From: Patescibacteria group bacterium
GTDB lineage: Bacteria > Patescibacteriota > Patescibacteriia > UBA11705 > DATKZF01
Assembly: GCA_049319825.1 (NCBI GenBank)
Contig: JBMORT010000002.1
Span: forward strand, 204,072 to 268,071
Length of the DNA: 64,000 nt
Direction: 5' to 3'
The position numbers were made by a program, and so were the translations under genes. Positions 21,678 to 55,975 of this stretch are shown here, piece after piece. How positions within the stretch are numbered: position 1 is the stretch's first letter; each line of letters starts with the position of its first letter. The notes below the pieces were generated by a model. It was not told where the DNA came from. It worked only from the letters and a program-made list of their open reading frames with translations, and ran no database searches.

Positions 21678-21735
21678 GCTTCCCCCTCCAAGCGGAAAGA
21701 ACTTATTTATGATAACAATTTTTTGAAAAAAATAA

Positions 21736-21766
21736 AAGCGGCGATTTGCTTGGCCAATCGCCGCTT
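21736..21766 (-). terminator. terminator hairpin AAGCGGCGATT-tgcttggcc-AATCGCCGCTT (copy 1)
   Basis: 11-bp perfect stem overlapping the stop codon of gene 21765..22364, followed on minus strand by U-run. Confidence 0.55.
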
Positions 21767-22364
21767 ATGCAATTATTCTTTTTCTATTATAATGGATGGC
21801 CATGACGGCTACAGAGCCATTACCCAAAATGCCATTGACAAGCGGATATAGCAGTTGCGCGATGTCGCCTGACCAGTTTGAAATGATAACCGCCAAAGTC
21901 AGGCAGTAAGAGATGACTCCTAAAATCCATGGAGGCGATTTTTCTTTCAGCCTGCCGCTTTTAAGCCCCACCCAAATGGGAACAAAGGAAACGAACAAAA
22001 TTATTTGGAGCATCAGATTAGCCAGTCTGGCATTACCAGTGGTTAGCCAAAGGATTCCGACTGCGGCAGCCAGCGCCAGGCAGAAATAATCAAGCTTGCT
22101 GAATTCGACAAATTTACGTTTGATGTAAGAATACACAAAGACAATGATGGTCATGGCCGCGCAAAATATTGCCAATAAGCATTTTTCCCAACTGATGACC
22201 ATGATTGCAAAGGTGACTGCGTTCATGCTCATTACTACCAGCAAAATAATCCATGTTGCCGGATTGGGAATGGATTCCCCTTTCGAGATTTGCTTTAGAT
22301 AAATAAAATAAACCGGAATAATCAGGAGGCTTGACACCAGCCCGAGCATTTCCGATGCGGTCAT
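21765..22364 (-). CDS. hypothetical polytopic membrane protein (about 6 TM)
   Basis: start chosen at MTASEM with AAGGGAGA RBS 5 nt upstream; hydrophobicity pattern only. Confidence 0.5.
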   Translation of the reverse strand: MTASEMLGLVSSLLIIPVYFIYLKQISKGESIPNPATWIILLVVMSMNAVTFAIMVISWEKCLLAIFCAAMTIIVFVYSYIKRKFVEFSKLDYFCLALAAAVGILWLTTGNARLANLMLQIILFVSFVPIWVGLKSGRLKEKSPPWILGVISYCLTLAVIISNWSGDIAQLLYPLVNGILGNGSVAVMAIHYNRKRIIA

Positions 22365-22427
22365 TTTATTCTCCCTTCGTCTGCAGTTCAAAAAATTATA
22401 TTTTAAATAATGGATTTTGTCAATTAA

Positions 22428-22458
22428 AAGCGGCGATTTGCTTGGCCAATCGCCGCTT
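22428..22458 (-). terminator. terminator hairpin, identical copy 2 of the 21736..21766 element
   Basis: 35-nt identity to copy 1 including full stem-loop. Confidence 0.5.
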
Positions 22459-22495
22459 AAAAATTATTCCTTTGATTTGTTTTCTGTTTTTCGAA

Positions 22496-25160: not shown

Positions 25161-26486
25161 ATGATATTATTGAATAAATCAATAAAAAATATGACTCAAA
25201 CATTTATAAAAGATTTTAAAAATTTTAAAGACAAAGAGGTTTCAATCAAGGGCTGGGTTTATAACTTGCGCTCATCGGGCTCGATCATGTTTTTGCAGGT
25301 TCGCGACGGCTCCGGATTCGTGCAGGCGGTTGTTTCCAAAAAAGAAGTTGACGCCAAAGTATGGGAAGAAGCGAAAAAGATTACCACGGAAAGTTCCGTT
25401 GAATTGTCAGGCAAAGTAACCGAACATCCCAAGCAAAAAGGCGTTTTTGAATTGCAGGTTCTCGGCGTGAAAGTGATTCAAGTCGCGGCCGAATATCCGA
25501 TCGGCAAAAAAGAGCACGGCCCGGAGTTTTTATTGGATAATCGTCACCTGTGGCTCCGCTCTCCCAAGCAGTGGGCGGTCTTGCGCGTTCGCAACACGAT
25601 TATCAACGCGACTTACGAATATTTGAATAAAGAAGGATTTATAAAAGTCGACGCGCCGATTTTGACGCCCGTGTCATGCGAAGACACCACCACTTTGTTT
25701 GAAACGGATTATTTTGATTTGGGAAAAGCTTATTTGTCGCAATCGGGACAGCTTTATATTGAGGCCGCGATATTTTCGGTCGGACGCTGCTTTGACTTTG
25801 GTCCGACTTTCAGGGCGGAAAAGTCAAAGACTCGTCGACACTTGACCGAGTTTTGGATGATGGACGCGGAAGCCGCTTTTGTCGAACACGAAGAGAATAT
25901 GAAAATTCAGGAAGGGCTGATTTGCTTTATCATTAAAAAAGTCTTGGAGCAAAATCAATATGAGCTTGGCGTTTTGGAAAGAGATGTCGAGGCATTGAAG
26001 AAAATTAAAGCGCCATTCGGCCGGATGACTCACGCGGAAGCCGTTAAAAAGCTCCAGTCGCTCGGGTCAGACATTAAAAAAGACGATGACCTCGGCGCTG
26101 ATGACGAGACTTTGCTGACCAAAGAAAGCGCGGTGCCGATTTTCGTGGAGAAGTGGCCGGCGAAAATCAAAGCGTTTTACATGAAGATCGATCCGGAAAA
26201 CAATGACGTGGTGCTGGGCTCAGACCTGATCGCGCCCGAAGGCGCCGGAGAAATTATCGGCGGGTCTCAGCGCGAAGATGATTATGATTCATTGCTAAAG
26301 AGAATGAAAGCGCAGAAAATGCCGATCGAATCATTTCAGTGGTATCTTGACTTAAGAAAATACGGCTCAGTGCCGCACAGCGGCTTCGGCTATGGACTCG
26401 AAAGACTTGTTCGCTGGATCTGCGGCCTGCAGCATATCAGGGAAACTATACCTTTTCCGAGGATGATTAATCGGTTGACGCCGTAG
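25161..26486 (+). CDS. asnS: asparaginyl-tRNA synthetase
   Basis: class II core FRAEKSKTRRHLTEFWMMDAEAAF (E. coli AsnRS-like), C-terminal GSVPHSGFGYGLERL..IPFPR; start may be 25191. Confidence 0.85.
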   Translation: MILLNKSIKNMTQTFIKDFKNFKDKEVSIKGWVYNLRSSGSIMFLQVRDGSGFVQAVVSKKEVDAKVWEEAKKITTESSVELSGKVTEHPKQKGVFELQVLGVKVIQVAAEYPIGKKEHGPEFLLDNRHLWLRSPKQWAVLRVRNTIINATYEYLNKEGFIKVDAPILTPVSCEDTTTLFETDYFDLGKAYLSQSGQLYIEAAIFSVGRCFDFGPTFRAEKSKTRRHLTEFWMMDAEAAFVEHEENMKIQEGLICFIIKKVLEQNQYELGVLERDVEALKKIKAPFGRMTHAEAVKKLQSLGSDIKKDDDLGADDETLLTKESAVPIFVEKWPAKIKAFYMKIDPENNDVVLGSDLIAPEGAGEIIGGSQREDDYDSLLKRMKAQKMPIESFQWYLDLRKYGSVPHSGFGYGLERLVRWICGLQHIRETIPFPRMINRLTP

Positions 26487-26506
26487 AGCGAAAACATCGA
26501 TGCCAA

Positions 26507-26552
26507 TATACCCTTCGACCATGCTCAGGGCAGGCGAATTCATACTAATGAT
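26507..26552 (+). repeat. conserved ~45-nt 3' element (copy after asnS)
   Basis: ACCCTTCGAC..CTCAGGGCAGGC..AATTC..AATGAT, homologous to 35506..35550 after aspS. Confidence 0.5.
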
Positions 26553-26616
26553 ACGAATATTTAATCCGAATGCTCCGAATATCCTATCCGAATACCACGA
26601 ATATCCCAAAAGTTTG

Positions 26617-26641
26617 ATCCATGATCCATGATCCATGATCC
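26617..26641 (+). repeat. GATCCAT heptamer tandem repeat (x4) abutting start codon
   Basis: gatccatgatccatgatccatgatccatgat directly 5' of ATG at 26642. Confidence 0.7.
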
Positions 26642-26851
26642 ATGATTTATATGCCCATAGAAAACAGAGACGACGTCGATCCCGGCATGGAAGTGCTGAT
26701 TGTCCTAAAAAAAGATCAGCCCACCGGAAAATTGACCAAAGGTATTGTCAAAGAAATTTTAACCAATTCCGCTTTTCATCCGCGGGGGATCAAAGTCAGG
26801 CTCGAAGACGGGCAGGTGGGCCGGGCGCAGGAAATATTGGAGAATAAATAA
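26642..26851 (+). CDS. YwbE-family small protein (DUF2196-like)
   Basis: PGM.V.IVLKKDQ.TGKLT.GIVK.ILTNS..HP.GIKVRL..GQVGR pattern matches B. subtilis YwbE. Confidence 0.65.
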   Translation: MIYMPIENRDDVDPGMEVLIVLKKDQPTGKLTKGIVKEILTNSAFHPRGIKVRLEDGQVGRAQEILENK

Positions 26852-26890: not shown

Positions 26891-27262
26891 ATGGAAAAAG
26901 AAGTGACAACCAATAAAATTTTGGAATTTTTGCAAGAGCATGGCGCGACCAAGGCTGATATTAAGATTTTGAAAGGGGAAATGGATGAAAAATTCGATGA
27001 GGTTAATTCAAGATTCGATGAGGTTAATTCAAGATTCGAGGGGGTTAATTCAAGATTGGATAGGATTGAGTCACAGATGGTCACTAAGGAATATTTAGAT
27101 GATAAGCTCGCTGATTTAAGGGGCGATCTTGTTATTCTGACGAGAAAAGAAGACGCGAAATTAATTGAATTGGTTAAAATATTGGGAAACAAACAAGTCC
27201 TTGCCGAAGACGAAGTAAAAAAAATTCTGGAAATGGAGCCTTTTCCTAAATTAAGCTTATAA
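26891..27262 (+). CDS. hypothetical coiled-coil protein containing in-frame 21-bp x3 tandem repeat (FDEVNSR)
   Basis: protein-like plus-strand ORF; minus-strand overlapping ORF judged shadow. Confidence 0.45.
   Translation: MEKEVTTNKILEFLQEHGATKADIKILKGEMDEKFDEVNSRFDEVNSRFEGVNSRLDRIESQMVTKEYLDDKLADLRGDLVILTRKEDAKLIELVKILGNKQVLAEDEVKKILEMEPFPKLSL
26983..27046 (+). repeat. 21-bp tandem repeat x3 inside CDS
   Basis: attcgatgaggttaattcaag x2 plus a variant third copy. Confidence 0.7.
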
Positions 27263-27368: not shown

Positions 27369-28517
27369 ATGAATAACGCTTTGCCGCAAATATTCAGTAA
27401 AAAATGGTTTCTGGGCATTCGCCGTGAAGAATCCTTATTTTTTTATTCGTCAAAGTTTATTGACCGGGAAAAATTTACCCTGAAAAAGTACGAAAATAAT
27501 TTTGTCGAGTCAATATTAATTCCTCATGAAGATAATGAGCTGATTCGTGCTTTCAATTCCGATCAAGCCAAGCTTTTTCATCAGGAGTCAAAGGAAAAGG
27601 TTCTAAAAGATTTTTCAATAATAGAAAAGTTCATCAGCCATGACGACACGTTATGGGTTGAAATCCAGAAGCTTTCAGAAAAGCTGGCCAAATCGGTTGA
27701 GAAGCTCGACTTCAAAAAAGCGAAAGGAATTTTTCAGCGCATTCTTGAAAAATACGGCGAGCATGGCGCGTATTTTTTCTTTATTTTCTCAGTGGGCATG
27801 ATGCTTGAGGGAAATAAAGAAGAAGTTGCAAACTCAAAGCCGGCTTTGGCCGCGCATGACAAATGGAGAAATGAGGTGGCATTTAAAGAAGAAAAAATGG
27901 GCGAAAACTTGTTTGGGTTTTTTAAATTACTAAAATCTCAAAGCGTTTTGAACACTGCGGAAAAAGAGATGATGGAATTTTTGACTGCCGGTGAAGTCTT
28001 GGCTTTGGCCAGTTGTCAGATAACGAAAGAAGAAATCGAAAATAAAATCGCGCGCCGGAAGCAAAATGGCTATGTCTATTTATATTTGAGGGATTTGCAG
28101 TATCAAGACGTGGTTATTGATGATCTTTCGACAGTTGAAGCTGTTAAAAAATATTTTGAGAGTATGGAAGCGCCGGCAGGCAAAGTGATCGAAGGCCAGG
28201 TCGCTTTCCCCGCGAAAGAGAAAATTATCGGCGAAGCTGTTGTTCTCAAAGATAAAAGCGAATTAGGAAAAGCGGATTTGGCGGGAAAAATTTTGGTCAC
28301 CATCCAAACCACGCCGCATTTTATTCCGTATTTAAAAAATGTTAAGGCGATAATCACCGACGAAGGCGGCATCACCTGCCACGCGGCGATTGTGGCCAGG
28401 GAGTTAAAAATACCGTGCGTCATTGGCACGAAAATTGCTACAAAGATTTTAAAAGATGGCGACAAAGTGGAGGTGGATGCGGAAAAAGGGGTGGTGAAAA
28501 TTATTAAGAATGTTTGA
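27369..28517 (+). CDS. PEP-utilizing-enzyme mobile (phosphohistidine swivel) domain protein with unique 290-aa N-terminal domain (paralog 1)
   Basis: C-terminal ILVT..TTP.F.P..K...[28 protein letters not shown] matches PpsA/PPDK central His domain. Confidence 0.7.
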   Translation: MNNALPQIFSKKWFLGIRREESLFFYSSKFIDREKFTLKKYENNFVESILIPHEDNELIRAFNSDQAKLFHQESKEKVLKDFSIIEKFISHDDTLWVEIQKLSEKLAKSVEKLDFKKAKGIFQRILEKYGEHGAYFFFIFSVGMMLEGNKEEVANSKPALAAHDKWRNEVAFKEEKMGENLFGFFKLLKSQSVLNTAEKEMMEFLTAGEVLALASCQITKEEIENKIARRKQNGYVYLYLRDLQYQDVVIDDLSTVEAVKKYFESMEAPAGKVIEGQVAFPAKEKIIGEAVVLKDKSELGKADLAGKILVTIQTTPHFIPYLKNVKAIITDEGGITCHAAIVARELKIPCVIGTKIATKILKDGDKVEVDAEKGVVKIIKNV

Positions 28518-28523
28518 AATTAT

Positions 28524-29618
28524 ATGTTAAATAAAAAGAAAAAATTAGTTTTTGAAAAATCAATTACTAGGGACTGGCCGCTTTTTATCGTACAAATGTT
28601 GCATAAAGGTTTTACAAAAGAATTTGAAAAACAATTTAAATTTAGATATTTAGAAGTTTTATTTGATTGTTTTTCTGACCATTTAGATATATATAGAGCA
28701 CCTATTGAACATATTGAGAAAATGAGAGCCTTTATTTTAAATAATCTGCGCAGAAATCCCAATTTCATAAGAGAGGTTGCTAAAAAGTTAATAGATTATT
28801 TTGAAAATTTTAAAGATATAATTCATGAAATTGATAATAAAAGTTTAGTTGTAACTTCAAATAAAGAATTGTCACAAATTATAAAAGCTTTTATTAAAGC
28901 ACATCAAGAGTTGGAACCTTGTTTTGTTATGATGTTTTGGTTTCCAATACAAATGGAAAATCATCAAAATAAAGAAAAATATAAGCCAGATATTGATATC
29001 GCGGCAAAAATGCGGGCAAAGACCGAGAAAGTTGGCCCAGAGGGTGATAGAATTGCTAGAAAACTTTCTGAAGAAGTCAGCAGAAGAATGTTTGGGAATA
29101 AGGATTTTGCCAAATTTATTTCTTTAAAAGAAACGCACGCTTTTTTAACAAAGAATAAAAAAGTTAATAAAAAGATTATTGAAAAAAGAAAAAAGGGTTT
29201 TATATACGGAGCTTTAGGAATTAAATATATAAAATTGTCAGACTATGCAAAACTTGAAGGGTTGGAAGTAAAAACAACATTAGCAGACATAAACAATAAT
29301 TACATTAAAGGTTCAATTGCTTACAAAGGATATGTGAAAGGTAAAGTGAGAATTATTATATCAAAGAAAAATATTAAAACCCTGAAAAATGGTGAAATTT
29401 TGGTCACCGCAATGACAACACCTGAATTTGTCCCAGCAATGAAAAAAGCGGCGGCAATTATTACAGATGAAGGCGGCATCACCTGCCACGCGGCGATTGT
29501 CGCTAGAGAATTGAAAATTCCGTGCGTGATCGGCACTAAGGTCGCCACCAAAGTGCTAAAGGATGGCGACCAAGTAGAGGTTGACGCGACCAAGGGGATT
29601 GTCAGGATTTTAAAATAA
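28524..29618 (+). CDS. PEP-utilizing-enzyme mobile domain protein with different N-terminal domain (paralog 2)
   Basis: same C-terminal swivel domain; 32-nt stretch identical at DNA level to paralog 1. Confidence 0.7.
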
Positions 29619-29750
29619 TTTTTATAGAATATTATGGAACGCATGATGTATGTCCCAGGCATGGAAATATTAGGTATCAATAGCGAGTACTTTACAAGTA
29701 ATATATATTATTGTAAGATACACAATGATTGTTATTAATCCTACAATAAT

Positions 29751-31571
29751 ATGCTTGATAAATTATTCAATTCAAAAACCCGCGTGGCTGTTTTAGGCTT
29801 ATTTTTCAATGATGAAGACAAAAAATCTTATATCCAGGAAATCATCAAATCAGCGAAGACAGACGCGGCCAATACTCATCGCGAATTGGATAAGCTTGAA
29901 AAGCTCGGCATTCTAAAGAGCAAAAAACAGGGCAACCAAAAATATTATTTTTTAAATAAAGACAATGCTTACTTCGAAGCTTTGAAAAGGTTGTTCGCGG
30001 TTTACCGCCGGAAAGACGATGGCTGGTACCTGCTCGAAGAAATTCCCAATGGCACTCCCACCTTTGTGGCTGATGTCTGCAATTCCAAGCTGTCAGTGGA
30101 ATGGAATGAGAAAAAAGGCTTCAAATATCCTCCCACGGATTTTCTGACCATCTACCGGAACGGCGTGGCCAGCATTTACTTTGTAAAATCTCAATTCGAT
30201 AAATACAGCCGCAGCATGCTGGACGGCTTTATCGCCGATCCCGCTTCTTTGCACAAAGTGAATGAAGAAATCATCAAGCAGTCGGACAGCTTGCGCGCTT
30301 ATTCACAAAAAGTATCTGCCATGAATCTGAAAATATTGGACGACAAAGAGCTGGGCAGTGTATTTTCTAATTTTTATAGAGAATATGAGCGCACTCATAT
30401 GTGGGCCTGGCCGCATACTGCGCCTGACTTTGGCGAAGCGTATTTATCCAAGTATTCTTTCGCGTATCTTAATGAGCGGCTGAAAAAAACCGGTAAAAAT
30501 TATTCGGTTGGCGAGATTTTCTCCAAGCTGACTTCGCCGACAGAGGAAAGCAATGCCCAAAAAGAATATCGCGACTTGCTTGCGATTTTGGATTATATTT
30601 TAAAGGAGAAATCATTGAGCCAATACTTTGCTGAAACCGAAACCCGCTTTATCCTGCGCGACCTGATGAAAAAAAATGAAAAGGCCTGGCAGATGATCGT
30701 CAATCATACTGATAAGTACGGCTGGCTGGGCTATGGCCTGATCGGCCCTGGCTGGAGCGAAGAGTACTTTATTGATATTTTGTGCAGCTTGATCAGGCAG
30801 CAAAGCGATCCGCAAAAGCTTTTGGCCAAAATCGAAGCTGAGAGGAAGGAATTGGCAAAGGAGCAGGAAAATATTTTCCAAGAGCTAAAAATTGACGACA
30901 GGAATCGAGAATTCTTTATCGGCGCCAAAGGCCTGGTCTTCACCAAGGGTTATCGAAAAGATTCATTATTCTACTTTTTCAGCGTGCTGGAAAATATTCT
31001 CAATGAATTGTGCAGAAGATACTATTTGTCAATGAACCAGGCGCGAATGCTCTTCCCGCATGAGATCGAAGATATATTAGGCGGCCAAAGCTTTGACTTC
31101 TCGGTTTTGAATGACAGGCAGAAATTATGCGCGCACTATTCAGCCGGACGCACCGATTATTGGAATGACACCATTGTAATCGGCGCTGAAGCGGAGAAAT
31201 TGATCAATAAGCTGCAATTCATTGAAGAAGACATTTCTGATATTAAAATTTTGAACGGCGAATGCGCCTCGCCCGGCAAATCCAGGGGCCGGGCCGTGAT
31301 TGTCAATGTCACGAAGGACATGCAGAAAATGAAAGACGGCGATATCTTGATTTCCATTGCCACCAATCCTGACCTGGTGCCGGCCATCAAGCGCGCCTCA
31401 GCCATTGTCACTGATGTGGGCGGGATCACCTGCCATGCGGCCATTATTTCCCGCGAGCTGGGAGTGCCCTGCGTCATTGGCACGAAATACTCGACCAAAG
31501 TGCTCAAAGACGGGGATATCATCGAAGTCGATGCCACGCACGGCAAAGTGACTATTATTAAAAGAGCGTAA
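29751..31571 (+). CDS. wHTH plus large middle domain plus PEP-utilizing-enzyme mobile domain protein (paralog 3)
   Basis: N-terminal ArsR-like wHTH, ~420-aa middle region, C-terminal [22 protein letters not shown]. Confidence 0.7.
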   Translation: MLDKLFNSKTRVAVLGLFFNDEDKKSYIQEIIKSAKTDAANTHRELDKLEKLGILKSKKQGNQKYYFLNKDNAYFEALKRLFAVYRRKDDGWYLLEEIPNGTPTFVADVCNSKLSVEWNEKKGFKYPPTDFLTIYRNGVASIYFVKSQFDKYSRSMLDGFIADPASLHKVNEEIIKQSDSLRAYSQKVSAMNLKILDDKELGSVFSNFYREYERTHMWAWPHTAPDFGEAYLSKYSFAYLNERLKKTGKNYSVGEIFSKLTSPTEESNAQKEYRDLLAILDYILKEKSLSQYFAETETRFILRDLMKKNEKAWQMIVNHTDKYGWLGYGLIGPGWSEEYFIDILCSLIRQQSDPQKLLAKIEAERKELAKEQENIFQELKIDDRNREFFIGAKGLVFTKGYRKDSLFYFFSVLENILNELCRRYYLSMNQARMLFPHEIEDILGGQSFDFSVLNDRQKLCAHYSAGRTDYWNDTIVIGAEAEKLINKLQFIEEDISDIKILNGECASPGKSRGRAVIVNVTKDMQKMKDGDILISIATNPDLVPAIKRASAIVTDVGGITCHAAIISRELGVPCVIGTKYSTKVLKDGDIIEVDATHGKVTIIKRA

Positions 31572-31575
31572 AAAT

Positions 31576-32514
31576 ATGTTCACAAAAATTTTCAAGGAAT
31601 TAAACTATAAAAGCGTCGACATCGCCGGCGGCAAAGGAGCTTCGCTGGGAGAAATGACTCGGGCCGGCATTCCGATTCCTCCCGGATACGTTGTTTTGGC
31701 CGGAGCTTTTGATAAATTTTTGGAAGAAACGGATTTAAATGTGGAAATAAAGGCTGTGATCGACGAGGTTAATTACGAAGACGTGAAATCAGTTGACGTA
31801 GCGTCGAGCAAAATCAGAGATTTAATCGCTGATGCGGATTTTCCGGCAGATATTGCCGGCGAAGTCCAAGAAGAATTCAAAAAATTGGGCGCTGAATACG
31901 TGGCGGTGCGAAGTTCAGCCACGGCTGAAGATTCTTCGATCGCTTCCTGGGCCGGCGAGCTGGAAAGTTATTTGAATGTTAAAGAAAAAGGCCTGCTTGA
32001 CGCAGTGAAAAAATGCTGGTCGTCTTTATTTACTCCGCGGGCGATTTTTTACCGCAAAGAAAAAGGATTGATCGACAGCAAGGTTTCAGTCGCGGTGGTG
32101 ATTCAAAAAATGGTCAATAGTGAAATTGCCGGCATTACCTTTACAGTTCATCCGGTGACCAAGGATCCGAATCAAATAATCATTGAAGCCGGATTCGGTC
32201 TGGGCGAGGCGATAGTTTCCGGCAGTATTACCCCCGATAGCTATGTGATTGAAAAAGATACCTGGAATATCATTGATATCAATGTGGCAGAGCAGGAGCG
32301 CCAGCTGGTTCGCGTGCCGGCCGGCGGCAACGTTTGGAAGGAGCTGCCTGCAACTAAGAAAGAAAAGCAAAAATTGACCGGCGAGCAAGTGGTTGAATTG
32401 GCACAATTATGCTATGACATTGAAAAGCACTATAATTTCCCGTGCGATATTGAGTGGGCGTTTGATGCCGGCAAGTTTTATATAACGCAGTCAAGGCCGA
32501 TAACGACTTTGTGA
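31576..32514 (+). CDS. stand-alone PEP synthase / pyruvate phosphate dikinase N-terminal ATP-grasp (PPDK_N) domain protein
   Basis: GGKGASLGEM, VRSSATAED, DIEWA..GKFYITQSRP motifs align with E. coli PpsA N-terminal 320 aa; no His or TIM-barrel domain in this ORF. Confidence 0.75.
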   Translation: MFTKIFKELNYKSVDIAGGKGASLGEMTRAGIPIPPGYVVLAGAFDKFLEETDLNVEIKAVIDEVNYEDVKSVDVASSKIRDLIADADFPADIAGEVQEEFKKLGAEYVAVRSSATAEDSSIASWAGELESYLNVKEKGLLDAVKKCWSSLFTPRAIFYRKEKGLIDSKVSVAVVIQKMVNSEIAGITFTVHPVTKDPNQIIIEAGFGLGEAIVSGSITPDSYVIEKDTWNIIDINVAEQERQLVRVPAGGNVWKELPATKKEKQKLTGEQVVELAQLCYDIEKHYNFPCDIEWAFDAGKFYITQSRPITTL

Positions 32515-32550
32515 AGGCAGTAGGCAAGAGGCAATAGGCAGTAGGTAAAT

Positions 32551-34132: not shown

Positions 34133-35479
34133 ATGGACAGAACGCTCAATTTGGAGGTAGTCAATAAAAAAGGAGAGGAAGTGATGATCGAAGGCTGGGT
34201 CGATGGCCGCAGAAACATGGGAAAAATCGTGTTTCTCGACATGCGCGACCGCACCGGAGTTCTGCAGGTCGTTTTGGTGCCCGGCGAGCTCGATAAAGAT
34301 TCCCAAAAACTGATTGATAACATCAGGCCGCAATTCGTATTGGCGATTGAAGGCATCGTTAACGAGCGGACAGGCAAAAACGCCAATCCGCAGATGGAGA
34401 CCGGCACAGTGGAAGTGCTGGCTAAAAAAATCACGGTTTTGGCCGAGGCGGAAACGCTGCCTTACGAGCTTGGTTCGGAAATGAAAATGGATACGTACCT
34501 CGATAACGCGCCGCTCAATTATCGAGATGAAAAAGCAAGAGCGATTTTTAAAGTGCAGGCCGCGTTGATACAGGGTTTTAGGAGCTTTTTAACGGCCGAA
34601 GGTTTTACCGAATTCCAGGCGCCCAAGCTGGTGGCCGAGGCCACTGAAGGCGGCGCCAATGTTTTCAAAATCGATTATTTCGGCAAAGCCGCTTATCTGG
34701 GCCAGAGTCCGCAATTTTACAAACAAATTATGACCGGCGTCTATGAGCGGGTTTTCACCTGCGGAAACGTTTATCGGGCGGAAGCGCATCACACATCACG
34801 GCATATTAATGAATATACCTCGCTTGATTTTGAAATGGGATTTATCAAAGATCATACGGATGTGATGGACATGACTCGCAGAGCTTTGACGGCAATGATG
34901 AATAACGTGGTTAAAAATTGCGATAAGCAAATCAAACTTCTTGATGCGGCCGTGCCCGAAGTGCCGGCGGAGATTCCGGCCTTGAAATTGGCCGAAGCGC
35001 AGAAAATTTTAAAGCATGAATTCGGCCAGGACTGCGAAGGCGAGCCGGATCTCGAGCCGCACCATGAAGAATTGATCTGCCAGTATGCCAAGCGGGAATT
35101 TAATTCTGATTTTATTTTCATCACTCATTATCCGGTCGAAAAAAGGCCGATGTACACCATGCCTGATGAAAAGGATAAGGGAAAGACCAAAAGCTTTGAC
35201 CTGCTTTTCCGCGGCTGCGAAATAGTGACCGGCGGTCAGCGTATCCATGACTATGAAATGCTGCTTGATAATATTAAAAAATTTAAAATGGATCCCCAGG
35301 ACTTTGAATTTTATTTAGAGGCGTTCAAATACGGCATGCCGCCCGAAGGCGGGATCGGCATGGGGCTGGAGCGGGTGACCCAAAAACTGCTTGGCCTGGA
35401 AAATATCAAGCAGGCCACGCTGTTTCCGCGCGATGATGTAAGGATAGATTTGCCTTTAAGTAAAGAAAATAACAAATAA
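34133..35479 (+). CDS. aspS: aspartyl-tRNA synthetase, archaeal/eukaryal type (likely non-discriminating)
   Basis: class II core YRAEAHHTSRHINEYTSLDFEM; C-terminal GMGLERV...LFPRD..RI.P. Confidence 0.8.
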   Translation: MDRTLNLEVVNKKGEEVMIEGWVDGRRNMGKIVFLDMRDRTGVLQVVLVPGELDKDSQKLIDNIRPQFVLAIEGIVNERTGKNANPQMETGTVEVLAKKITVLAEAETLPYELGSEMKMDTYLDNAPLNYRDEKARAIFKVQAALIQGFRSFLTAEGFTEFQAPKLVAEATEGGANVFKIDYFGKAAYLGQSPQFYKQIMTGVYERVFTCGNVYRAEAHHTSRHINEYTSLDFEMGFIKDHTDVMDMTRRALTAMMNNVVKNCDKQIKLLDAAVPEVPAEIPALKLAEAQKILKHEFGQDCEGEPDLEPHHEELICQYAKREFNSDFIFITHYPVEKRPMYTMPDEKDKGKTKSFDLLFRGCEIVTGGQRIHDYEMLLDNIKKFKMDPQDFEFYLEAFKYGMPPEGGIGMGLERVTQKLLGLENIKQATLFPRDDVRIDLPLSKENNK

Positions 35480-35505
35480 CAAAATCCAAATAACAAATAA
35501 ATCAC

Positions 35506-35550
35506 AATGACCCTTCGACTAATCTCAGGACAGGCCTAAATTCCAATGAT
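35506..35550 (+). repeat. conserved ~45-nt 3' element (copy after aspS)
   Basis: homologous to 26507..26552. Confidence 0.5.
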
Positions 35551-35629
35551 CCAAACAATTTTGAAAATTTGGACATTGGAGCTTTAATATTATTTGTGAT
35601 TTGTGATTTGACATTTGAGATTTATTGCA

Positions 35630-35956
35630 ATGCGTTTATCAAAGCTCCAAAAATACATTCTCATTCAATGCTATCAAGATAAAGGCGACAAAATGCACCG
35701 CGATCGCCTGATTGGATTTTATGGAAATATTCAGCAAGCGCCCAAATCTAAAGTTCAGACAAAGATAATCACCCGCAGCTTGGAAAGCCTGATTGATAAA
35801 GAATTAATGACCGGATTCGGCGTGCGCACTCCGCATAAGTGGTTCATAAAGGAAATCAGACTGACATCAAAAGGCAAAAAAGAAGCGAAGAATCTGCTCG
35901 GCGAGCAGATGAGTTTGCCATTAAAAACAAGAAAGGCGATAGGCGATAGGCGATAA
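35630..35956 (+). CDS. hypothetical basic protein; 3' end overlaps AGGCGAT x3 repeat
   Basis: 108-aa ORF upstream of scpA; no motif. Confidence 0.35.
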   Translation: MRLSKLQKYILIQCYQDKGDKMHRDRLIGFYGNIQQAPKSKVQTKIITRSLESLIDKELMTGFGVRTPHKWFIKEIRLTSKGKKEAKNLLGEQMSLPLKTRKAIGDRR

Positions 35957-35975
35957 GCGACACGCATTTCAAATT

Positions 35976-36665: not shown

Positions 36666-36781
36666 AGATTACAAATTTATCACAAAGTGATCCCTTCGGG
36701 ACAAATTGAATACAAATATTACAAATGGTTACAAATTGTTGCGAGTCCGTATAATCTCGTAACATCTCGTAACAATAATTT

Positions 36782-38232: not shown

Positions 38233-38333
38233 TCCGAATTTTCGATTCGAAATATCCCAAATGACCCGAATTGGCAGGACGAAGATGTAATATTCGTGGC
38301 ATTCGGATACATTCGGGGATTCGGATTATATAT

Positions 38334-51912: not shown

Positions 51913-52029
51913 ATGATCTTAATACTATTATAACAGATTTAGGCGAATGTCAAATACGTTTCAGTTGTAATAAAAAGGCAATAGGCAATAGGCAGTAGGC
52001 AGTAGACGACTGACATATGCGCCGAACTA

Positions 52030-52134: not shown

Positions 52135-52795
52135 ATTACGAATTTTCCATACTAGAAGATAAAGCATAGCTATGTTTTTGTTACAAATATTACGAATTTT
52201 ACGAATTACAACCACTAATTTGGGAAATCGTAATTTTGTTACGAATTACAATCACTTTCGAGATTTAGGAATTCGAGCTTCACAATCCCTGAATCAAACT
52301 CGGTTTTGATCCATCATCCATGTTCCATGATTCAAGACTTTATCAACAATTCAATTTTTGCATTTCAATTCATATTTGATAAAATAAAGCCGAGGGTCGC
52401 CGGAAACCCTAGCATCAACAATGTCATTGGGGTTACAATCCGGTACCCTCACTGTATTCGATATAAAAAATACAAAATTTGAAATTGGGGATAGACAATG
52501 GAAATCTCCTGTTTCTAAATATTCTTCAGTCAACTCAATATCTCTCAAATCCTTATCCTTGCCTGATGGCTCGCGCAGTAGTTTGTCAGATTCGCTTAAT
52601 CGGGCAATATAAAAAAACAGGACGCCGGGTCCTGATTTTATATTGGGAATTGGAAACTGGAAATTAGAAATTGGGAAAATGTCTACGGATCTATGAAAAA
52701 ATGGATCAACGGATTGCAAACACATATAACATATAACTGATGAATAAATCATTGTTATTTGTTTCATGCTTCATGCTTCATGCTCCATGGACAAA

Positions 52796-55907: not shown

Positions 55908-55975
55908 TTTTGGGAATTGGAAATGGGGAATTGGAAATGGGGTTAATCCTAGTTTCCAATTTTCATTTTTTAGTT

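Follow-up and report, generated by a model that had tools for sequence, protein, structure and literature searches.

Two genes for aminoacyl-tRNA synthetases (aaRS), asnS and aspS, are followed by the same short sequence in the genome of a Patescibacteria group bacterium, and the question raised by this locus is whether the sequence belongs to the synthetase genes or reached both places on its own. The stretch analysed, hereafter the window, comprises 64,000 nucleotides of contig JBMORT010000002.1 (assembly GCA_049319825.1, positions 204,072 to 268,071 of the forward strand). In the window, asnS occupies positions 25191-26486 and encodes a class II D/K/N synthetase with an OB fold (Pfam). The gene aspS lies at 34133-35479 and encodes a protein of the same domain architecture, with AsnRS and AspRS sharing only 30% amino-acid identity. 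The core ACCCTTCGAC-N4-CTCAGG-R-CAGGC stands 3' of both genes in the same orientation. Copy 1 (26510-26535, plus strand) reads ACCCTTCGAC-CATG-CTCAGGGCAGGC and lies 23 nt past the asnS stop codon (26484-26486), and copy 2 (35510-35535, plus strand) reads ACCCTTCGAC-TAAT-CTCAGGACAGGC and lies 30 nt past the aspS stop codon (35477-35479); both match the pattern exactly. It is considered probable that each of the two arose independently, as a copy of a very short dispersed DNA repeat that behaves as an insertional, selfish element. The window copies most likely have no synthetase-related function and are probably both inert passengers in repeat-rich spacers.

A sequence-only reading of the window had already noticed the shared sequence, and its location after both genes is confirmed. 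It had described an element of about 45 nt, of which the 26-nt core has proved real. Smith-Waterman alignment of the two 3' spacers returns this core only, with 22 of 26 positions identical and a score of 32, a value reached by 1 of 1000 dinucleotide shuffles (17.3 +/- 2.6). The flanks do not exceed shuffled sequence: of 1000 shuffles, 520 score at least as well as the right flank, which holds the 'AATTC…AATGAT' extension, and 974 as well as the left flank. The 'AATGAT' falls within local tandem-repeat material 3' of copy 1. A longer form of the core, with a leading A and a trailing AATTC, occurs in 24 metagenome contigs, the flanks of which are unrelated to the window and among themselves.

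The two sites are the only ones of their kind in the window. The pattern CCCTTCGACNNNNCTCAGGNCAGGC has two matches in the 64 kb even if three mismatches are allowed, with an expectation of 0.00. An nhmmer search with a family profile built from 216 non-redundant copies recovers copy 1 (E 1.7e-7, 27.4 bits) and copy 2 (E 3.5e-7) and no other window site. Two 'weaker relatives' that had been proposed at 36687-36700 and 38262-38290 do not match this profile even at E <= 1000, and CCCTTCGAC with one mismatch is found 8 times in the window against 9.9 expected, which is chance level.

The repeat family and its filled and empty sites

Both window sites match the core consensus of a repeat that is defined here as CCCTTCGAC-N3-4-CTCAGGRCAGGC, with a length of 24-26 nt. 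The family consensus is (A)CCCTTCGAC-[AAG/AGG/TTCG/TCCG]-CTCAGG-R-CAGGC-(T). Among 123 genome copies, the centre is TTCG in 27, AAG in 22, AGG in 18 and TCCG in 10, the R position is G in 76 and A in 45, and the flank columns are uninformative except for a T at +1 (60%). Flanks are unrelated between copies, in the manner of a dispersed unit, and those of the window copies align at chance level. The centres CATG and TAAT are rare variants within the family, and copy 2 is devoid of the G that usually precedes CTCAGG; the window copies are therefore somewhat decayed, and neither is a recent copy of the other.

The pattern CCCTTCGAC-N2-6-CTCAGG-N-CAGGC, exact at its 20 specified bases, occurs in at least 120 species genomes (one genome per species), and the matches listed span about 20 bacterial phyla. 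They include many Acidobacteriota, together with Chloroflexota, Nitrospirota, Planctomycetota, Verrucomicrobiota/Kiritimatiellia/Lentisphaeria, Bacteroidota, Alpha-, Beta- and Gammaproteobacteria, Desulfobacterota, Myxococcota, Bdellovibrionota, Gemmatimonadota, Actinomycetota, Chlamydiota, Patescibacteria, Dormibacterota, Eremiobacterota, Methylomirabilota, Binatota and Latescibacterota. Cultured isolates are represented by Gelidibacter mesophilus DSM 14095, Aequorivita sinensis, Leeuwenhoekiella aestuarii, Occallatibacter savannae and Sphingobium quisquiliarum. Finished plasmids or chromids with the motif are known from Sphingobium (up to 10 places per replicon), Novosphingobium, Moraxella osloensis and Trichlorobacter lovleyi, and 86 viral contigs of IMG/VR contain it. 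No copy was found in 5,426 complete genomes of E. coli. Among the origins offered by the sequence-only reading, that of a degraded repeat comes closest, as the sites are dispersed-repeat copies; the family is huge and cross-phylum rather than local to this genome.

No paper containing the motif DNA (TTCGACAAGCTCAGG, GAGCTTGTCGAAGG and CTCAGGGCAGGC, both strands) was found in the searchable literature, and the same holds for its translated peptides (FDKLRAG, LRQAQGR, PSTGSGQA and others); a description elsewhere may exist. Motif-derived peptides such as PFDKLRAG, LRQAQGR and PSTGSGQA presumably occur among the spurious open reading frames (ORFs) annotated as 'hypothetical proteins', and the repeat may have been noticed informally in this guise.

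Close relatives of the window genome provide the comparison of orthologous sites. The gene order trmB-asnS-DUF2196-…-aspS-orf-scpA-scpB is kept in the syntenic relatives L233/L234 (AspRS 87% identical) and L235 (85%). The motif was not found after asnS or aspS in these loci, nor elsewhere in their 21 kb, and likewise not in the more distant relatives L243-L245. Searching for the motif in relatives, as the sequence-only reading had proposed, and in the window returned the two window copies and none in seven loci of five Patescibacteria relatives (L233-L236, L243-L245). At the asnS site, L235 carries a canonical terminator instead. Because the core is shared by paralogues of 30% identity but not by orthologues of 85% identity, it can be neither a regulatory feature passed on by descent nor what is left of a duplication.

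Alignment of the aspS spacer of the window with that of L233/L234 leaves a clean 26-column gap exactly at TGACCCTTCGACTAATCTCAGGACAG, and this spacer reads as a filled site in the window and an empty site in L233. The asnS spacer is too diverged to be aligned with relatives, and the second filled/empty pair comes from thyA, which is filled in L042 and empty in L239. The motif-bearing gene encodes a full-length ThyA (424 bits against E. coli ThyA) in which 'YVAPSTGSGQAKLSC' takes the place of the loop 'YVAD------GKLSC'. In the DNA, the filled allele reads GTGG-CCCCTTCGACAGGCTCAGGACAGGCC-AAA and a homologue of 92% identity reads GTGG-CGGATGGC-AAA. At this site 24 nt replace 6 nt, a net gain of 18 nt, in frame and with no target duplication. 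In Burkholderiales, with homologues from Comamonadaceae examined, the ThyA loop after FFQFYVA has various lengths (ADGKLSC; APSTGSGQ[AG]KLSC; APSEVAGQPGKLSC; APPQAGEQRGRLSC; others), and several longer variants have AP-S…GQ in common with the motif-encoded peptide. These variants may go back to an early insertion of this element that has since decayed.

ThyA is one of several proteins with a motif-encoded segment. The motif lies inside the Pfam domain envelope in 8 of 10 ORFs tested, namely those of an HsdM methylase, a CCA-adding enzyme, a PfkB kinase, an ATP-dependent DNA ligase, a Ser/Thr kinase, an FAD oxidoreductase, the GlyRS beta subunit (from an isolate) and a type II secretion system (T2SS) ATPase; UvrA also holds a copy. 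Read directly, the repeat unit is open in five of its six frames, and the frame most common in bona fide genes reads …GSGQA, which consists of small, flexible residues. Overall, copies are depleted from long ORFs, with spans of at least 200 codons holding 51% of copies versus 83% of random positions. They are about 2.4-fold enriched within 80 nt of gene 3' ends (19.6% per strand versus about 8% of random positions). The copies near 3' ends are split evenly, with 47 of 240 in sense and 47 of 240 in antisense, which argues against a strand-specific RNA role. Other copies are nested in further repeats, such as CCGTTCGCCCTGAG[motif]…GTCGAAGGG, where the partner is a relative in opposite orientation, and in Acidobacterial hairpins.

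In Sphingobium, convergent genes have between them inverted doublets of a sister sub-family that ends in …GCTCAGGGCGAACGG. On the chromids compared (L238 2940-3030 versus L241 and L242), the doublet is CCGTTCGGGCTGAGCTTGTCGAAGCC … ACCCTTCGACAAGCTCAGGGCGAACGG. In strain TomTYG64 a 73-nt segment with one doublet arm is missing; the indel is bounded by CTTG microhomology and is not a clean single-unit insertion. On the T. lovleyi plasmid pIAE1 (L237 3001-3028), the motif lies antisense in the 3' part of an annotated transposase coding sequence, where the coding strand reads …EPALSVVEG…, and adjoins a sul1/qacEdelta1 integron remnant. This copy is not at the end of an insertion sequence (IS).

The absence of a strong hairpin, noted in the sequence-only reading, is borne out by folding, with z-scores between +0.1 and +1.5. 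Fold energies of the 24-25-mers are -2.7 to -4.4 kcal/mol (z > 0), z-scores of the window copies including their flanks are +0.14 and +1.04, and neither strand beats shuffled sequence. No terminator-like site, defined as a GC-rich hairpin with a T-run, was detected in 26400-26700 or 35400-35700, and the motif was rejected as a hairpin or terminator on both grounds. Rfam returned no family at gathering thresholds, T-box included, for the window and 14 motif loci, and no match in either spacer at E <= 10. As to an origin from a universal RNA, the motif is not known to resemble tmRNA, RNase P RNA, 4.5S RNA or tRNA T- and D-loops over more than 6-9 nt. An enclosing stem formed by the flanks was also rejected, given a weak excess over mismatched-partner controls (mean -12.0 versus -11.25 kcal/mol, p = 0.03), which probably reflects the subset of copies inserted in palindromic repeats.

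Explanations for the shared core

Family membership, unrelated flanks, filled and empty sites, in-gene copies, lack of structure and of strand bias, and cross-phylum spread are established. That the spread is active and depends on a trans-acting factor on DNA is what we infer. The repeat is scattered over chromosomes, plasmids and phage-like contigs of many phyla; in this model, it would appear and disappear between close relatives, and would land in other repeats and in genes. Copies would survive where they do little harm, namely in spacers near gene 3' ends and in protein loops in a tolerated frame (PSTGSGQA), and two of them would have settled in the repeat-rich spacers 3' of asnS and aspS. 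By analogy, candidate agents may be a sequence-specific HUH/Y1-type single-strand transposase, comparable to the REP-associated tyrosine transposases (RAYTs) of repetitive extragenic palindromic (REP) sequences and REPIN elements, or microhomology-primed patch insertion. The two filled/empty junctions examined have a 3' GC/GGC in common. Together with absent terminal repeats and target duplications, this would be compatible with either HUH-type transposition or microhomology-primed patching.

Several points weigh against insertional spread. No mobilising enzyme, terminal inverted repeat or target-site duplication was found at the two junctions (aspS spacer and thyA) or in the ORFs between motif pairs; the ten ORFs examined at other loci contained no transposase and encode housekeeping or phage proteins (a thioredoxin-reductase-like protein, ribosomal protein L2, a phage portal protein, NYN and DUF3164 proteins). 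The thyA loop is length-variable in Comamonadaceae, so the change there is a replacement rather than a simple insertion. With two copies in the 64-kb window and none in 64 kb of related loci, proliferation within the lineage is unsupported. The exact cross-phylum conservation needs conserved recognition machinery or frequent horizontal transfer. Finally, the window has only two class IIb synthetase genes, and both copies have the same orientation and lie 23 and 30 nt past their stops, an arrangement that finds no support in the relatives or in the family at large. The chance of this double placement is very roughly 1 in 400 to 1 in 1500, a post hoc estimate that was not computed, and the only account available under insertional spread is that it arose by chance or that the repeat hopped locally from one permissive, repeat-rich spacer to another at a distance of 9 kb.

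A bolder version of insertional spread holds that the 25-mer is what can be seen of a so far undescribed class of ultra-small mobile DNA, which would still be active in most bacterial phyla and in their phages. Having neither coding capacity nor terminal repeats nor a hairpin, it would be written into spacers, into repeats and in frame into essential genes such as thyA, uvrA, glyS and that of DNA ligase, either by conserved trans machinery or by microhomology-primed templated patching. This version is put forward tentatively and is rather doubtful. If true, no known mobile element would be smaller or more widely distributed, and the repeat would time and again give rise to small insertions in protein loops. 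Active mobility would imply broadly conserved insertion machinery, would explain a large class of spurious 'hypothetical proteins' (PFDKLRAG, LRQAQGR, PSTGSGQA), and would allow the repeat to serve as a natural marker by which horizontal exchange among soil and groundwater bacteria could be followed.

Among the rival explanations, a bipartite DNA (or symmetric RNA) site for a widely conserved host protein survives best, although it is unlikely. Its halves, CCCTTCGAC and GCTCAGGRCAGGC, would be kept by selection, for instance in nucleoid organisation, at replication or transcription boundaries, or as a target of defence or restriction. Two conserved halves around a variable spacer of 3-4 nt suit such a site, as do the exact conservation over about 20 phyla and the enrichment at gene 3' ends in both orientations. 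It is harder to reconcile with in-frame copies inside many unrelated enzymes, with presence or absence between close relatives without a compensating site, and with nesting in other selfish repeats. Moreover, copies are few and unevenly spread (2 in the 64 kb of the window versus 0 in 64 kb of relatives), and the factor cannot be universal because the site is absent from the 5,426 E. coli genomes.

A conserved element in the 3' untranslated region (UTR) of the class IIb aaRS genes, as suggested by the sequence-only reading, is very improbable. It would act in cis as an RNA, be it a tRNA(Asp/Asn) mimic, a stability signal or a feedback signal. Autoregulation of aaRS through tRNA-like mRNA elements is established for E. 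coli thrS and yeast AspRS, both window copies are in sense shortly after the stops of asnS and aspS, and the motif contains GAC, an Asp codon. Against this, neither the relatives whose AspRS is 85-87% identical nor three more distant ones have the motif behind asnS and aspS, it has no stable or conserved structure and no Rfam match, and 0 of 232 other motif loci encode a class IIb aaRS. Sense and antisense copies are equally frequent family-wide, and the same 25-mer lies inside unrelated coding sequences.

The two remaining explanations can practically be dismissed. A surviving tail of an asnS/aspS duplication, or gene conversion between the loci, would draw on the fact that the genes are paralogues and neighbours in distant relatives, but proteins of 30% identity have diverged for too long for neutral 3' DNA to persist from the duplication, the similarity stops abruptly at the 26-nt core, which the orthologous spacers of close relatives do not have, and the presence of the same core at hundreds of unrelated loci rules out the earlier idea of a duplicated segment. 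An assembly, adapter or contamination artefact might be suspected since metagenome-assembled genomes (MAGs) make up most hits, but the motif is present in cultured isolates, finished replicons and long-read chromosome-level MAGs, its centre varies (AAG, AGG, TTCG, TCCG), in-gene copies keep their reading frames, and both window copies are reproduced in an independent Logan assembly of run SRR32167788 (contigs L001 and L002).

At this locus the finding is ordinary, with two passenger copies of a repeat family that is itself unusual. A shared regulatory 3' element of two paralogous synthetases was a tempting but wrong inference, which is now removed. As a caution, short cross-locus matches in genomes of candidate phyla may be copies of promiscuous repeats.

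Spacers and neighbouring features of the window

In the window genome as in its relatives, the intergenic spacers consist of tandemly arrayed short units, heptamers for the most part, as detected with Tandem Repeats Finder (TRF). Downstream of copy 1 and outside the repeat, direct arrays of CCGAATA/ACGAATA-like units occupy 26547-26606 (plus strand), and TGATCCA is repeated 4.6 times at 26615-26646 (plus strand), ahead of the DUF2196 gene. The Logan contig L001 ends in the TGATCCA array (window position 26643) and not at the motif; it is the heptamer arrays, not the motif, that break short-read assemblies here.

Copy 2 is surrounded by a long imperfect hairpin of inverted heptamer arrays (35455-35632, plus strand) that is not part of the repeat. 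The hairpin consists of AAATAAC-type units at 35467-35500 and ATTTGAG/ATTTGTG-type units at 35592-35623 (TRF period 7). Its RNA fold has an energy of -33.6 kcal/mol (z -3.06), with none of 200 shuffles as stable, and copy 2 is an unpaired bulge in the predicted structure. L233 forms an equivalent hairpin without the motif, which indicates that the heptamer-array hairpin is common to both genomes and the motif an addition. Further window arrays lie at 32515-32545, 35934-35960, 51976-52005, 52642-52674, 52763-52789 and 55910-55942, the units in the window being TGATCCA, AGGCAAT/AGGCGAT, AAATAAC, ATTTGAG, ATTGGAA, TTCATGC and TTGGGAA. L233 and L235 have analogous arrays with other units (TACGAGA, GTCATTA/TAATGAC). 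In the spacer at 38236-38330, inverted CCGAAT…ATTCGG arrays form a long imperfect hairpin across its whole length. Such spacer-long hairpins may act as terminators or mRNA stabilisers at these sites, where canonical terminators are lacking. Family-wide, 4.2% of motif copies lie in period-7 arrays versus 2.0% of random positions. A composite element of heptamer array and motif was considered and rejected, as this association is no more than about 2-fold and rare.

In the Falkowbacteria relative L243, the asnS-aspS spacer (241-600) is packed with widespread repeats (gtcattccgac…, gatccctcgactccgtttcgctccgctcgggatga, gagattgcttcgtcg…ctcctcgcaatgac), some of which are visibly related to the super-family of the motif. 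The spacers around asnS and aspS seem to be repeat sinks in several lineages of candidate phyla.

In the window, asnS and aspS are separated by three tandem paralogous genes for phosphoenolpyruvate (PEP)-utilising enzymes (mobile domain; 27369-31571) and a PPDK_N gene. The paralogues share a 238-nt repeat at 28288-28525, 29395-29632 and 31342-31579. Because asnS and aspS are adjacent or nearly adjacent in L243 and L244, the intervening block seems to have been inserted, or to have expanded, between them. An ORF without a Pfam match (26891-27262) contains a 21-nt tandem repeat, ATTCGATGAGGTTAATTCAAG, at 26992-27061 (3.3 units, 91% matches), which encodes an in-frame 7-residue protein repeat. 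Further upstream, two 38-nt hairpin copies, AAAAGCGGCGATTTGCTTGGCCAATCGCCGCTTA, lie at 21730-21767 and 22422-22459. They are 97% identical, about 690 nt apart and bracket a 208-aa ORF on the minus strand (21765-22391), and may represent repeats of a terminator-like kind or mark the two ends of a small cassette.

Comparison with known systems

Several classes of known elements resemble the motif in single features. Intrinsic terminators and stabiliser hairpins of 3' UTRs share its position just past a stop codon, whereas the GC-rich stem, the T-run and a stable fold are absent. Cis-regulatory RNAs of aaRS genes, such as the T-box or a tRNA-mimic operator, differ from the window sites, which lie downstream and not upstream of the genes. 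Miniature inverted-repeat transposable elements (MITEs) have terminal inverted repeats, a target-site duplication and a length of about 50-500 bp, whereas the motif is 24-26 nt long and without inverted repeats. The short tandemly repeated repetitive (STRR) sequences of cyanobacteria are tandem heptamers, of which the spacers with both window copies are reminiscent, being built from heptamer arrays themselves; some other family copies also lie within heptamer arrays (L012, L074, L119). STRR form tandem arrays, whereas the motif is a single 25-nt unit, and the weak period-7 link is probably a matter of shared intergenic location.

By analogy, the motif appears to work most like REP/REPIN elements and the small dispersed repeats (SDRs) of cyanobacteria. 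To our knowledge, the very short repeats described so far (REP, SDR, HIP1, uptake sequences) are each specific to particular lineages, which would make a cross-phylum family of such breadth unusual.

REP/REPIN elements are mobilised by RAYTs, which are IS200/IS605-like Y1 HUH transposases (Bertels & Rainey 2011, PMC3116915; Di Nocera et al. 2013, PMC3733652), and a GTAG or CGTC tag defines two REP super-families (PMC3733652); the text of PMC3733652 makes no mention of the motif sequence. Like the motif, they are short (20-40 nt), non-coding, dispersed and enriched in extragenic positions near gene 3' ends in either orientation, and both are devoid of own coding capacity, terminal inverted repeats and target duplications. 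The sister sub-family (…TTCGACAAGCTCAGGGCGAACGG) is REPIN-like in its inverted doublets and strain-level indels in Sphingobium. However, the motif core has no palindrome or stem-loop, and on direct reading neither strand of ACCCTTCGACNNNNCTCAGGRCAGGC has GTAG/CTAC or CGTC/GACG. The extragenic location at 3' ends applies to both window copies, though many family copies are intragenic. REPs are lineage-specific, whereas the motif is exact across about 20 phyla and occurs in frame inside genes. No RAYT gene stands next to any motif copy examined.

The SDRs reportedly insert into intergenic DNA, other repeats and conserved genes, with filled and empty sites between related genomes and a mobilisation mechanism that is said to be unexplained. 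Several SDR families are said to share a hairpin, which the motif core does not have. SDR1-8 come from heterocyst-forming cyanobacteria (Elhai et al. 2008, Genome Res 18:1484, as cited in PMC3116915 and PMC5861425), and their restriction to Nostocaceae (PMC5861425) does not fit the cross-phylum distribution of the motif. No description of the motif sequence was found in the literature on small dispersed repeats, including papers that cite Elhai 2008. The size class of SDRs, 21-27 nt, includes that of the motif, which with its 24-26 nt is likewise dispersed, nested and present inside conserved genes. Likened by description rather than by sequence, the SDRs would be the closest conceptual precedent for the repeat that follows asnS and aspS.

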